Below the pieces are notes generated by a model. That model was not told the origin of the DNA and searched no databases. It saw nothing but the letters and a program-made list of their open reading frames with translations. A stretch of DNA of 64,000 bases, taken from the NCBI GenBank assembly GCA_027021705.1, contig JALUTT010000120.1, forward strand, positions 37,005-101,004. Direction: 5' to 3'. A program made the translations under genes and the position numbers. Positions within the stretch are counted from its first letter, which is position 1, and each line of letters starts with the position of its first letter. Shown piece by piece: positions 5,964-9,320 of the stretch. The stretch comes from Anaerolineae bacterium (lineage in GTDB: Bacteria; Chloroflexota; Anaerolineae; S140-20).

Positions 5964-7451
5964 ATGAGCACGCTTAAAATCTTCGCCCTGGAACTGACCG
6001 TCGGCCCGGCCTCCTCCCCCGGCCACTACCCCGTCACCGCCCGGGGGCTCTCCGGCGGCGCCCGTGCCACGATGGTCCTCGATTCCAACGACCCTGACTT
6101 CCGCGCTGCCCTCACCGCCATCGAGCAAGATGCCACCGACGAGGACCTCTTCCTCAACTTTGGCCGTCGCCTCTTCAACGCCCTCTTCACCGGCCCCGTC
6201 GAGGACGCCTACCGCGCGGCCCTGGGCTACGCCAAGGGGCAGGGGGGGAAGCTGCGGCTGCGGCTGCGGTTGGGCCAGGCCCCCGAGGTTGCCGCCCTCC
6301 CCTGGGAATACCTCTACGACCCTCAGCGGGACCTCTTCCTCGCCATCGCCACCGACACCCCCCTCTCCCGCTACCTGGACGTGGAGCAACTCTTCCCCGG
6401 CCCCCCGCCGGCCGAGCCCCCGCTGCGGGTGCTGCTGGTCCTCTCCAATCCGGCGGACCTGGACGACTACGGCCTCCCCCCCCTCTCGGTGGACCGGGAG
6501 CGCCGGGTGGTGGAGGAGGGGCTGGCCGCGCTGCGCCGGGAGGGGCAAGTGGAGCTGCAGGTGCTGACCCAGGCCCGGCGGGCGGCCATCAGCGAGGCGA
6601 TGCGGCGCTTCCGGCCCCACGTCTTCCACCTGGTGGGGCATGGGGCCTTTCGGCGAGGGCGGGGGGTGGTGCTGCTGGAGCGGGAGGATGGGCGGGCCTG
6701 GATGGTGAGCGACCGGGCCTTTCGGGAGTTCTTCCAGGACCGGCCGGAGACGCGGCTGGTGGTGCTGAACGCCTGCCAGGGGGCGACGCGGGATGGTGGG
6801 GAGGCGCTGGCGGGGCTGGGGCCTCGGTTGGTGCAGCGGGGGGTGCCGGCGGTGGTGGCGATGCAGTACGCGGTGCGGGATGGGGCGGCGGTGGACTTTG
6901 CGCGGGAGTTCTACCGGGTGCTGGCGGGGTGGGCACCGGTGGATGTAGCGGTGACGGAGGGGCGGCGGGCGGTCTACCTGGACTACGGGGTGGAGCAGCG
7001 GGATTGGGGGGTGCCGGTGCTGCTGATGCGGGACCCCGATGGCCTCCTCTTCCTGCCGCCGGAAGCCGAGCAGCCTGAGGCCGAGACGGCTGCTCCACCG
7101 ACGGGAGGGGTCCAGATCCACATTGGAGAGGTCCGCGACGCTTCCGTCTCCATCGGCGATGTCGCCGGCCGGGACATCCACAAGACGACGTCGCCGGCCG
7201 GGGCGGCGTCGCCTCCCACCGGTCGCCTGGCCGACCTGGAGGATCTTATCCGTGAGGTCTACGGCCTGCTGCGGGAGTACGAGGAGGTTCTCATCCTCAC
7301 CGATGATCCGAAGGAACGGCTGCGGGCGCGCCGGCGTATCGAGGAACAGCGCACCCTCCTCCGGCGCTACCTATCGGAGTACCGGCAGCTGGCCCAGCGG
7401 TTGGGCCGACCCGTTCCGCCGGAGATCCAGGAGATGCTGTCCCTATGGTAG
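5964..7451 (+). CDS. CHAT-domain (caspase/separase-like) cysteine protease with amyloid-like motif and C-terminal helical hairpin (EAD-like)
   Basis: LPWEYL, catalytic His in VFHLVGHG and Cys in VVLNACQG, GVPAVVAMQ, DWGVPVL; then [27 protein letters not shown] and a helical tail. Confidence 0.88.
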   Translation: MSTLKIFALELTVGPASSPGHYPVTARGLSGGARATMVLDSNDPDFRAALTAIEQDATDEDLFLNFGRRLFNALFTGPVEDAYRAALGYAKGQGGKLRLRLRLGQAPEVAALPWEYLYDPQRDLFLAIATDTPLSRYLDVEQLFPGPPPAEPPLRVLLVLSNPADLDDYGLPPLSVDRERRVVEEGLAALRREGQVELQVLTQARRAAISEAMRRFRPHVFHLVGHGAFRRGRGVVLLEREDGRAWMVSDRAFREFFQDRPETRLVVLNACQGATRDGGEALAGLGPRLVQRGVPAVVAMQYAVRDGAAVDFAREFYRVLAGWAPVDVAVTEGRRAVYLDYGVEQRDWGVPVLLMRDPDGLLFLPPEAEQPEAETAAPPTGGVQIHIGEVRDASVSIGDVAGRDIHKTTSPAGAASPPTGRLADLEDLIREVYGLLREYEEVLILTDDPKERLRARRRIEEQRTLLRRYLSEYRQLAQRLGRPVPPEIQEMLSLW

Positions 7452-8407
7452 AACAGAGCTACTTCGACCGGGTGCTCAAGATTCTGGCCCGCAACCACGC
7501 CGACGCCTTCCTGCGGCTCGCCTTTCCCCACCGCCCCGTCCGCTTGCTCGGCACCGTCGAGAACGTCGAGATTGACCTGCCCGCCCAGCGGGTGGACTTC
7601 GTCCACCAGATCGAGGACGAGGGGACCGAAAAGCTCCTCCACCTGGAGTTCCAGACCCGCCACGAGCCGGACCTCCCCCGGCGGCTCTTCGTCTACTCCG
7701 GCGCCCTCACCCGCCGCTTCGACCAGGAGGTGCTGACCTTGGTGCTCTACCTGGAGCGGCGCCACCGGGTGCCGCCAGGGGTGTACGAGACCCGGCTGGG
7801 GGGCGAGGTGGTCAACCGCTTTCGGTATCCGACGGTGGGGCTGTGGGAGCACGAGGGGCGGATACGGAGCGGGGAGTTGCGGGCCTTGGCTCCGCTGCTG
7901 GTGGTGGTGGCCGAGGAGCGAGACGAGGGGGTGTTGGCGGAGGAGCGGCGGCTGATCCTGGAGGAGCGGGATGAGCGGCGGCGGGCGGAGTTGTTGGCGG
8001 CGGCGGTGACGGTGGCGAGCCGATACTTTGAGCGAGACTTTCTGTGGGACTTCTTCCGAGAGGAGGTGGAGATGATGCGAGGGAGCAGCTTCATCGAGGA
8101 GTGGATCGAGGAAGGCATCCGCAAGGGGAGGGAGGAGGGGATGCGTGAGGGGCTTCAGCAGGGGCTTCAGCAGGGGCTTCAGCAGGGGCTCCAGCAGGGG
8201 CTCTTGCAGGCCCGGCGAGAGGCTATCATAGATGTGCTGGTGACCCGCTTCGATCCCACCTACCGGTACCTCCGGGCGTTGGAAGCACGCCTGGAGCGCA
8301 TCGGGGACCTGGGGACGCTGCGCGAACTGGTGGGCCTGGCTGCCCAGGTGGAGAGCCTGGAGGCTTTCCAAGAGCACCTGGACGCTCTCGGCGATCAGAC
8401 CGGGTAG
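7445..8407 (+). CDS. Rpn/YhgA-like putative transposase-nuclease (PD-(D/E)XK-like)
   Basis: FDRVLKIL, RVDFV, LLHLEFQT, RLFVY, C-terminal EEG..KGREEG and GLQQ repeats. Confidence 0.75.
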   Translation: MVEQSYFDRVLKILARNHADAFLRLAFPHRPVRLLGTVENVEIDLPAQRVDFVHQIEDEGTEKLLHLEFQTRHEPDLPRRLFVYSGALTRRFDQEVLTLVLYLERRHRVPPGVYETRLGGEVVNRFRYPTVGLWEHEGRIRSGELRALAPLLVVVAEERDEGVLAEERRLILEERDERRRAELLAAAVTVASRYFERDFLWDFFREEVEMMRGSSFIEEWIEEGIRKGREEGMREGLQQGLQQGLQQGLQQGLLQARREAIIDVLVTRFDPTYRYLRALEARLERIGDLGTLRELVGLAAQVESLEAFQEHLDALGDQTG

Positions 8408-8435
8408 CTGGGTGGCTTCTACCCCGTTCCTCGCG

Positions 8436-9320
8436 ATGACGGCATACGTAGATTGGTTCGTAGACCGCGAAAAGCAGTTCCAGGGCTTCCTCAAGATGGT
8501 CGCCCGGGAGACGGAGAAGCAGGTGATGCTCGTCCAGGCTCCGGCCGAGATGGGCAAGACCTGGCTCATCCAGCGGCTGCGCCACGAGTGTCGCAGCCGG
8601 GGCATTCCCGTCGCCCACTTCGACTTCCGGGACCGTCGGCCCTGGGACTACCTGACCATCGTCCGGCAGGCCCGCGATCAGCTTGGCCCCGCCTACTTCA
8701 ACCCGATGACCCAGGTGATCAACGCCTCGACGGGCGTCAACGTCCAGATCACCACGGGGGCCGGCGCCGGCGGCGTGGACCTCTCCATCGCCGAGGCGGG
8801 CGGCCAGGTCGTCGAGAGCGAGGTCGCCGTGGGCGACGTGGCCGGCCGCGACATCATCAAGGACAACTTTTTCTTCGTCCAGGCCGATAGCGAGACCGCC
8901 CGCCGGACCATTGAGATCCGCATCACCGACGCCTTCTTCGCTTGCCTGGAAGCCCTTTGCCGGGAGCAGGTTGTGGCTTTTCTCTTCGACTCCTACGAGG
9001 ATGTGACCGAGGAGGCGGATCGCTGGCTGCAGGCCCACCTGTTGGCGCGGGTGCGCGATGGTCTCCTCCCCAACCTCGTCATCGTCCTGGCCGGGCGGGA
9101 AGTCCCCCAGTTCGATACCTCCTGGCGTCACTGTCTGGCCCGCACGGGCCTTCACCCCTTCGACAAGGAGGATGTCGTCGAGTACATCGTGCGCAAGCGG
9201 GGGCTGACCGACCTGGACCTGGAGACCATCTACCGCACCTCCGGGGGCCATCCGGGCCTTTTGGGCAAGATGGCCGACATCGCAGCCCTGGAGAGCGAGG
9301 AGGACGAGGACTGGCTGTGA
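8436..9320 (+). CDS. STAND-like P-loop ATPase with internal amyloid-like motif and no sensor repeats (alternative start GTG 8412)
   Basis: FVDRE pre-P-loop, Walker A APAEMGKT, Walker [17 protein letters not shown] sensor-1, SGGHP (GxP); insert ...[14 protein letters not shown]. Confidence 0.75.

Follow-up and report, generated by a model that had tools for sequence, protein, structure and literature searches.

In a 64,000-nt stretch of DNA from an Anaerolineae bacterium (Chloroflexota; GenBank assembly GCA_027021705.1, contig JALUTT010000120.1, forward-strand positions 37,005 to 101,004; the window hereafter) we found a caspase-like CHAT protease and a small AAA+/STAND-type ATPase that share a strand-prone segment of ~30 residues. 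Matching of the segments, gene linkage, co-variation, predicted disorder, a composition like that of bacterial amyloid signalling sequences (BASS) and the dispensability of both segments in natural fusions were all observed, and they form the basis of the following reading, to which we assign a probability of about 0.65: together with a giant tetratricopeptide repeat (TPR) protein the pair belongs to a three-component NLR-like conflict system, in which a split STAND nucleoside triphosphatase (NTPase) would recruit and activate the CHAT protease through the shared segment.

A segment shared by a CHAT protease and a small ATPase

The region comprises three collinear genes on the plus strand (as are all genes and protein features of the window located below): the CHAT gene, a putative effector (5964–7451, 495 aa), a 320-aa gene (7445–8407) and the gene of a 302-aa P-loop ATPase (8412–9320). 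The three genes and the Pfam CHAT match (PF12770, 115.8 bits against a gathering cut-off of 24, E=3.2e-33) agree with an earlier note on this DNA, which had also pointed to the identical 8-residue core GDVAGRDI in the first and third gene products. On the CHAT side the core is encoded at 7158–7181 (GGC GAT GTC GCC GGC CGG GAC ATC), on the ATPase side at 8835–8858 (GGC GAC GTG GCC GGC CGC GAC ATC); a comparison of both DNA copies returned the three synonymous differences that the note had counted. The likeness exceeds the 8-mer: 31 of 85 residues are identical in a BLASTP comparison of the two proteins (35.8 bits, pairwise E=1e-6), and the part they share is ~30 residues long. In the CHAT protein it lies in the tail behind the protease domain as a beta-prone, presumably coupling segment (residues ~378–407, 7095–7184). 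This segment matches both a beta-prone insert of the ATPase (residues 108–150, 8733–8861, GVNVQIT...GVDLSIA...) and the N-terminus of an NB-ARC-like protein encoded at the end of contig C96 of the same genome.

How specific is this match? A loose regular expression of the motif, run over the six frames of the 5.19-Mb genome, gave seven matches in open frames of at least 80 codons, only three of which are in conflict-type proteins: CHAT, the ATPase and the NB-ARC-like protein on C96. The N-terminus of the latter reads ...RRASVSFGDVAGRDVHK... and aligns with the CHAT tail without gaps (21/47 identical, 40 bits, pairwise E=1e-7); it is only on this unlinked protein that the motif occupies the classical N-terminal position. 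The exact 8-mer, written as a degenerate DNA pattern, matched 5/301 genomes of the class and its reversed control none. Translation of four foreign loci placed three of the matches in an unrelated enzyme or in doubtful frames, the motif was not recovered in the fourth, and no extra partners came to light. The GDVAGRDI match between CHAT and ATPase is not due to chance.

Linkage and co-variation of the segments

A scan of species-representative genomes for relatives yielded 25 ATPase loci. A CHAT homologue is found upstream on the same strand in eight of them: in six it abuts the ATPase gene, in one a degenerate ATPase paralogue intervenes, and in one the distance is 4.8 kb. Linkage of the two genes in relatives, which the earlier note had put forward as a check, thus stands for these eight loci. 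In a ninth locus (L028) a CHAT-like protein of larger size is encoded on the far side of the giant gene, and the scan for matching segments flagged none in it. Behind the protease domain, each of the eight upstream CHATs has a segment that follows the pattern GGVxIxIG..GGxVxxSxIxIGDVAGG/R... We scored 1613 open frames in 24 loci against the insert of their own ATPase: the nine best frames scored 64–101 at a 99th percentile of 43, and these nine are exactly the eight CHAT tails and one 167-aa protein encoded directly upstream of the ATPase of locus L021.

The partners also change together. Scores of cognate tail/insert combinations sum to 708 as against a permutation mean of 515 (sd 41), and 0/20000 permutations reach 708 (p ~5e-5, a value that overstates independence since the nine pairs come from related genomes); the cognate partner ranks first in its row in 5/9 cases. 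Locus L020 has a shortened form of the segment in both partners, and locus L027 has a divergent form, ...VG[ND]IS.ISGG..IIAGG.V, likewise in both. The co-varying motifs that the earlier note expected of linked pairs were therefore recovered. Furthermore, in ten pairs 162/317 aligned residues are identical, compared with 553/951 bases, and 73 of the 162 identical residues (45%) are encoded by different codons. Because identical residues so often use different codons, the likeness is held by selection at the protein level, as had been proposed from the window's own pair. Recent gene conversion was considered as a source of the likeness and ruled out on the same 45%. A complex prediction of the ATPase with CHAT residues 362–420 (96-row and 9-row alignments), run without controls, scored 0.00 in both runs and speaks neither for nor against binding.

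Two of these loci deserve a description of their own. At L014 the degenerate ATPase paralogue between CHAT and the intact ATPase (L014:9261-10004, corresponding to G001:C35) has neither the Gly-Lys-Thr of Walker A nor the beta insert and may be a regulatory or decoy subunit. At L021 the 167-aa protein (L021:9480-9983) takes the place of CHAT, bears the segment at its N-terminus and continues into a helical C-terminal part. It gives a weak match to TCAD2 (20.5 bits versus a cut-off of 27) and may be an alternative effector or an adaptor.

Natural fusions

Thirteen longer relatives of the ATPase were found. Four of them are CHAT–ATPase fusions (P0122, P0124, P0126 and P0127; CHAT by Pfam for P0122 and from precomputed assignments for the others), and in 4/4 neither the CHAT-tail segment nor the ATPase insert is present: the spacing from Walker A to Walker B is 99–123 residues in the three fusions measured (the fourth was judged by eye) versus 142–155 in insert-bearing forms. 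Eight others are ATPase–TPR fusions (P0125 and P0128–P0134; 1293–1387 aa), which continue from the ATPase into the winged-helix-like stretch, the TPRs and the hydrophobic segments of the giant protein. The insert is retained in 8/8 of these, with a pattern ending in [DG]N. The thirteenth relative, P0123, has the insert and an extension. Because the CHAT–ATPase fusions have lost both segments and the ATPase–TPR fusions keep the insert, the segments appear to stand in for a covalent connection of the protease with the ATPase; judging from these architectures, matching segments are needed only when the two are separate proteins.

The ATPase carries its segment between Walker A and Walker B

Homologue N-termini indicate that Met9, at 8436, is the likely true start of the ATPase. 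Its family gave 143 matches at E<=1e-3; among the 120 homologues listed, lengths are 266–328 aa and identities 50–98%, and the family is mostly Chloroflexota, metagenome-assembled genomes by their source names where these are given. In alignments of 20 and of 96 members G48 and K49 of Walker A (APAEMGKT, residues 43–50, 8538–8561) and D193 of the Walker B strand (8970–8999) are invariant. Alignments and an AlphaFold2 (AF2) model, in which the Walker B strand covers residues 188–193, agree with the earlier note in placing the motif between Walker A and Walker B: there the conserved anchors INxxT and KDNxFxVQADS flank a variable, Gly-rich and strand-like insert. The standalone homologues examined have a beta-rich insert, whose core pattern is matched by 88/120; the other 32/120 have variant inserts (two of these seen in part). 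Subtypes in the family include ...ISDISGGEIIIAGGDVIKDN and ...AGGDVNVGNVNVVVDN. The insert is 34–78 residues long with a mean of 42, as compared with ~30 for the CHAT segment. It is enriched in Gly (3.7x), Val (2.3x), Ile (2.0x), Asn (1.9x) and also Ser, and depleted in Pro (0.54x), Leu (0.41x), Lys (0.65x) and aromatic residues; Gln, at 1.04x, is not enriched.

The AF2 model (96-row alignment) consists of an AAA+-type core and a lid, with a mean predicted local distance difference test (pLDDT) score of 81 and a predicted template modelling score of 0.76; pLDDT exceeds 90 in the core and is below 50 at residues 110–145. Walker A, Walker B, AAA+-like core and helical lid identify the protein as a P-loop NTPase. 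Foldseek placed the archaeal ATPase_2-type proteins PAB2304/SSO1545 (2qen, 2fna) at the top, followed by p97, RFC and ORC/Cdc6; for 2qen and 2fna E is 6e-7 to 2e-6 and the TM-score on the query 0.44–0.54, at ~15% sequence identity. We take these two archaeal proteins to include a winged-helix domain of their own, and they are presumably without a beta-prone insert. The ESM Atlas returned generic small AAA_16-type clusters only, and Pfam gave, besides the matches discussed below, a sub-threshold match to NPHP3_N. An assignment as inactive STAND (iSTAND) was rejected on the grounds that the Walker A Lys and the Walker B Asp are intact and invariant.

The protein ends in EDEDWL (9300–9317), the short acidic tail described in the earlier note. 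Its consensus is D-x-D-W-L with a nearly invariant W301; this C-terminus is conserved in the split ATPases and also ends three of the four CHAT–ATPase fusions. EEVD tails are known to bind TPR co-chaperones, and by analogy the acidic DWL tail might be a docking peptide for the giant protein's TPRs.

A giant TPR protein completes a putative split STAND

A winged helix and a C-terminal repeat sensor are absent from the 302-aa ATPase. The earlier claim of an ATPase without a sensor is thus correct for the protein itself, which has no repeat domain, but not for the system: in 24/25 loci the ATPase gene is directly followed, on the same strand, by a gene for a homologue of one giant protein, the putative sensor, and in the 25th the contig ends at the ATPase. 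The gap between the two genes is 0–2557 bp, with a median of a few tens of bp. The giant proteins have ~1400–1775 aa and a conserved N-terminal stretch, ...LAEAxRLAAIPxWFDxxLLxALR...FSFV..., that we read as winged-helix-like, a label with no profile match behind it. They carry many TPRs and, in a crude Kyte-Doolittle scan, a central block of ~6–8 hydrophobic segments that are probably membrane-spanning. Since fused homologues run from the ATPase directly into the winged-helix-like sequence of the giant protein, we regard the small ATPase, as the nucleotide-binding half, and the giant protein as the two apparent halves of one split STAND NTPase. An unsplit AAA_16–TPR protein encoded on contig C75 is a distant relative of the ATPase (pairwise E=5e-6); compared with the giant protein by BLASTP it aligned in the TPR repeats alone, which lends no direct support to the split.

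The CHAT protease and its putative adaptors

The His/Cys dyad that had been called intact proved to be so: nine orthologues all have H226 (in GHG) and C271 (in NAC). In the AF2 model of CHAT (9-row alignment, mean pLDDT 81) residues 1–365 are folded, while residues 368–417, which include the motif, have pLDDT values below 50. A helical hairpin domain follows at the C-terminus (residues 418–494, 7215–7445; AF2 helices 418–445, 449–480 and 486–494; pLDDT 83–88). PADLOC matched CHAT only to a SAVED_CHAT model, via the protease domain, and a homologue search with residues 330–495 as the query retrieved only CHAT itself.

The helical domain gave no Pfam match at E<=0.1, the models of effector-associated domains (EADs) included. 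It has ~10 paralogous copies in the genome (40–52% identity), and several stand at the N-termini of NTPases: an NB-ARC–TPR protein on C92 (NB-ARC E=3.8e-19), an NB-ARC protein on C144, the AAA_16–TPR protein on C75 and a P-loop protein on C8. In the orthologous CHATs of L017 and L020, Pfam EAD7 scores above its cut-off at the position of the helical domain, which thus looks like a second, EAD-like adaptor. Because its copies sit at NTPase N-termini and EAD7 is recognized in these two orthologues, CHAT looks engageable through two kinds of adaptor; other STAND proteins can probably reach it via the shared motif, as on C96, and via the helical domain. Another protein of this genome (G000), of 197 aa (C40:18403-18996), has a CHAT-type helical adaptor at its N-terminus, then the strand-like sequence TTYHVQIGQATGIAIGDGAQVIQ and then a coiled coil; it is possibly another adaptor of the same network.

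The operon is rearranged in this genome

The middle gene of the window (7445–8407) encodes an Rpn-family-like nuclease or putative transposase (TIGR01784, E=3.2e-7, below cut-off). Full-length or near-full-length paralogues (48–83% identity) are found on other contigs, and copies of the family in G000 lie on C10, C176, C146, C5, C81, C145 and C12. Neither this gene nor its DUF3786 neighbour nor the S-adenosylhomocysteine hydrolase gene behind the ATPase has a counterpart in any of the 25 loci. Being multicopy and not found in these loci, the middle gene is taken as an insertion that stands outside the system. As a system component it was ruled out for the same reasons. The giant homologue of this genome is encoded elsewhere, on contig C171 (60990–65300, 46% identical to the L017 protein), with no adjacent ATPase. 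It sits behind a MutS2-like gene and two more distant Rpn-like paralogues (~34% identity), which are arranged in tandem at C171:55002-57003, a few kb upstream of the giant gene. We conclude that the window holds a rearranged copy of a normally three-gene operon, and the gene positions suggest that Rpn-like elements drove its break-up.

Comparison with known systems

Signalling by matching motifs from an NLR-like sensor to a cell-death effector is known in fungi and has been proposed in multicellular bacteria; one E. coli system has been tested. Dyrka et al. 2020 (bioRxiv 10.1101/2020.01.06.895854) describe motif-sharing Bell/NLR gene pairs with the motifs BASS1-10; they note that CHAT, TIR2, alpha/beta-hydrolase and guanylate cyclase effectors are further partners of such motifs, and that all-in-one fusions exist. 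Ibarlosa et al. 2024 (bioRxiv 10.1101/2024.11.07.622273) report the E. coli Bab/Agp BASS11 anti-phage system. The system studied here resembles BASS pairs in that a STAND-type NTPase and a separate effector share a short Gly/Val/Ile/Asn-rich, strand-prone motif; collinear abutting genes, an effector motif placed after the effector domain, CHAT effectors, motif-free fusions and occurrence in Chloroflexota are further points in common. Adjacent collinear effector and NTPase genes that bear the motif were found in the relatives, whereas the inserted gene separates the pair in the window. Composition, beta propensity and length (~25 residues in BASS) also agree, Gln excepted.

There are differences as well. 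The receptor motif of BASS pairs is N-terminal to the nucleotide-binding oligomerization domain, whereas here the NTPase domain itself harbours it, in the interval from Walker A to Walker B. Unlike BASS receptors, the receptor consists of two proteins, the small ATPase and the giant winged-helix/TPR/membrane protein. The ATPase insert is moreover longer than the CHAT tail segment and has two G-V-x-x-x-I stretches versus one. In a pure string search of supplement file 1 of PMC8086366, which holds BASS data, GDVAGR, IGDVAG and VGGDVAG had 0 occurrences each. Related sub-motifs are present in the file: ...YQAGRDQHITER ('..QAGRDQHITER') and one 'YVAGRDITFG' in set C01, and 'SVAIGGDVSG' in set C09.

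The logic of homotypic coupling is not confined to BASS. The EADs and iSTAND systems of Kaur, Burroughs, Iyer and Aravind 2020 (eLife, PMC7159879) include homotypic adaptors that couple effector and NTPase without a covalent link, as here; the word 'amyloid' has 0 occurrences in that paper. Pfam EADs are folded terminal domains, in contrast to the short disordered beta-prone stretch found here, which on the ATPase lies in a loop. The iSTAND ternary system joins an inactive STAND to MoxR-vWA, whereas here the active-site residues are intact and the constant neighbour is a TPR membrane protein (no search was aimed at MoxR/vWA). HET-s/NWD2 and RHIM follow the same logic, in which receptor oligomerisation leads to templated folding of the effector motif (Dyrka et al. 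2020); the HET-s/NWD2 effector is, however, a pore-former, as opposed to the protease found here, and motif family and placement differ. Within the literature consulted, parts of some articles and some supplements aside, we found neither a motif described at a site between Walker A and Walker B nor an arrangement of CHAT, small ATPase and giant TPR membrane protein. The system is thus probably a BASS-like case of NLR/effector motif signalling with an internal receptor motif and a split sensor that is probably membrane-anchored.

Proposed mechanism and alternatives

The usual operon would supply a CHAT protease, a small AAA+/STAND ATPase and a giant winged-helix-like/TPR/membrane protein. We picture the ATPase as displaying, between its Walker motifs A and B, a flexible loop of 35–45 residues that is strand-prone and rich in Gly, Val, Ile, Ser and Asn, with CHAT bearing the matching segment on its disordered tail. 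Strands arranged like a hairpin would bring the chain back to where it began and hence suit insertion in a loop. The two segments would pair directly by an intermolecular beta-sheet, possibly in a stacked, amyloid-like cross-beta assembly. On a signal the sensor would trigger oligomerisation of the split STAND and thereby cluster the inserts; clustered inserts would recruit and concentrate CHAT proteases, which would be activated by proximity. Caspases are activated by proximity on apoptosomes and inflammasomes. A bolder version of this proposal is conceivable, although we hold it more likely wrong than right: the segment would represent a new amyloid-type motif family, its receptor copy grafted as a loop in the NTPase domain of a split membrane-anchored STAND, where ATP-driven oligomerisation would stack the loops into a cross-beta nucleus that templates the CHAT tails, and several sensors would be wired to one protease by the motif copy at the NB-ARC N-terminus and by the second, helical adaptor.

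We considered four alternatives. A sub-case of the proposed recruitment is strict prion-like amyloid signalling, in which the cross-beta fold of the insert would template open-ended polymerisation of CHAT tails; we put it at about one chance in three. The gene-pair logic and the all-in-one fusions are those of NLR/effector amyloid pairs, CHAT effectors included (Dyrka et al. 2020). Composition is BASS-like, hydrophobic residues alternate and are punctuated by Gly turns, the monomers are predicted to be disordered, sub-motifs recur in the BASS sets C01 and C09, and the same motif takes the classical N-terminal position on the NB-ARC-like protein. However, the three strings searched for in the published BASS file did not occur, Gln is not enriched, and the receptor motif is tethered at both ends in a folded domain.

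It is unlikely that the two segments are instead ligands of one shared third protein, such as the giant protein with its TPR arrays, and co-vary because both fit the same groove. The giant TPR protein is the constant neighbour (24/25 loci), TPR domains are established peptide binders, and the insert persists at many loci where no CHAT gene adjoins the ATPase gene. The fusions argue the other way: docking on the giant protein should have preserved at least one copy of the segment in the CHAT–ATPase fusions, but 4/4 have shed both, though three keep the ...[DG][ED]WL tail that is typical of split forms acting with a separate giant protein; and the ATPase–TPR fusions, which have the supposed receptor in cis, still carry the insert (8/8).

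Still less probable is that CHAT cleaves the segment or engages it as a pseudosubstrate, so that the tail would auto-inhibit the protease with the ATPase loop as substrate or competitor. Both segments are exposed disordered loops of the kind that proteases favour, and co-variation could follow protease specificity. Yet no Arg, Lys or Asp is constant as a P1 residue across the tails, the ~30 shared residues including V-x-I-x-I stretches go far beyond what a cleavage site needs, and the NB-ARC-like protein bears the segment N-terminally in the manner of an adaptor. That the segments are uncoupled, biased Gly/Val-rich linkers or relics of an old duplication is hardly credible: they are of low complexity (19% Gly) and Tandem Repeats Finder detects a weak 15-bp periodicity in the insert-coding DNA, but the exact 8-mer with its ~30-residue alignment, the upstream partners as the top 9/1613 frames, cognate co-variation, synonymous codon differences and concerted loss in fusions strongly disfavour it.

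Segment-mediated recruitment of CHAT by a split STAND remains our preferred reading: adjacency, co-variation, differing codons and loss of the segments in fusions bear out the earlier proposal that CHAT and the ATPase are a functional pair. Several observations weigh against it. The co-variation amounts to about two independent coordinated changes (L020 and L027), and the cognate pair of the window scores below other combinations (second in its row, third in its column). Of the 21 loci for which 1.5 kb or more of upstream sequence is available, only nine have a matched partner; many genomes thus retain the insert although no partner adjoins it. To the C96 N-terminus the CHAT tail is at least as similar as to the ATPase (40 versus 35.8 bits). 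Pfam matches of the ATPase to STAND-type families all score below the gathering cut-off (ATPase_2 23.3/33.2, iSTAND 19.8/24, AAA_16 16.4/32.6, NACHT 15.1/26.7), and PADLOC gave no match for the protein. An amyloid-forming element would be unusually placed in a loop of a folded NTPase domain. Since the operon is broken, function in this genome is uncertain, and an immune or cell-death role of the system is presumed purely from the domain types.

Other features of the window

A tandem repeat with a 28-bp unit (5821–5949, 4.1 copies, 90% matches) lies between genes, immediately before the start of the CHAT gene, and could be a regulatory or REP-like element. Similar intergenic sequences lie at ~2780–3000 and 4006–4245 between ABC-permease genes, with antisense frames that read ...SPVE[DG]AFSPDGLFEARF...; upstream of the NB-ARC-like gene, C96:1254-2400 contains repeat-like non-coding stretches. 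Both the permease intergenic sequences and the C96 stretches look like dispersed repeat elements. Downstream of the ATPase, at 11852–14143 (+), an intein that includes a LAGLIDADG homing-endonuclease domain splits a gene for GDP-mannose 4,6-dehydratase (Pfam matches: GDP_Man_Dehyd in two stretches, 1.6e-131; Intein_splicing, 4.5e-14; LAGLIDADG_3, 2.8e-7).

Implications

The comparison defines a conserved three-part system of CHAT protease, small ATPase and giant TPR membrane protein. It also indicates that a receptor motif can sit inside the NTPase domain, and motif screens restricted to the termini would miss such cases. Motif-free fusions provide comparative evidence for motifs that stand in for a covalent link; if the bolder version of the proposal is true, the fusions that shed both motifs would amount to an evolutionary 'control experiment'. 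Finally, the co-varying subtypes could be swapped in tests of specificity, and a protease read-out would allow activation by proximity to be separated from activation by templated folding in bacterial caspase-like enzymes.

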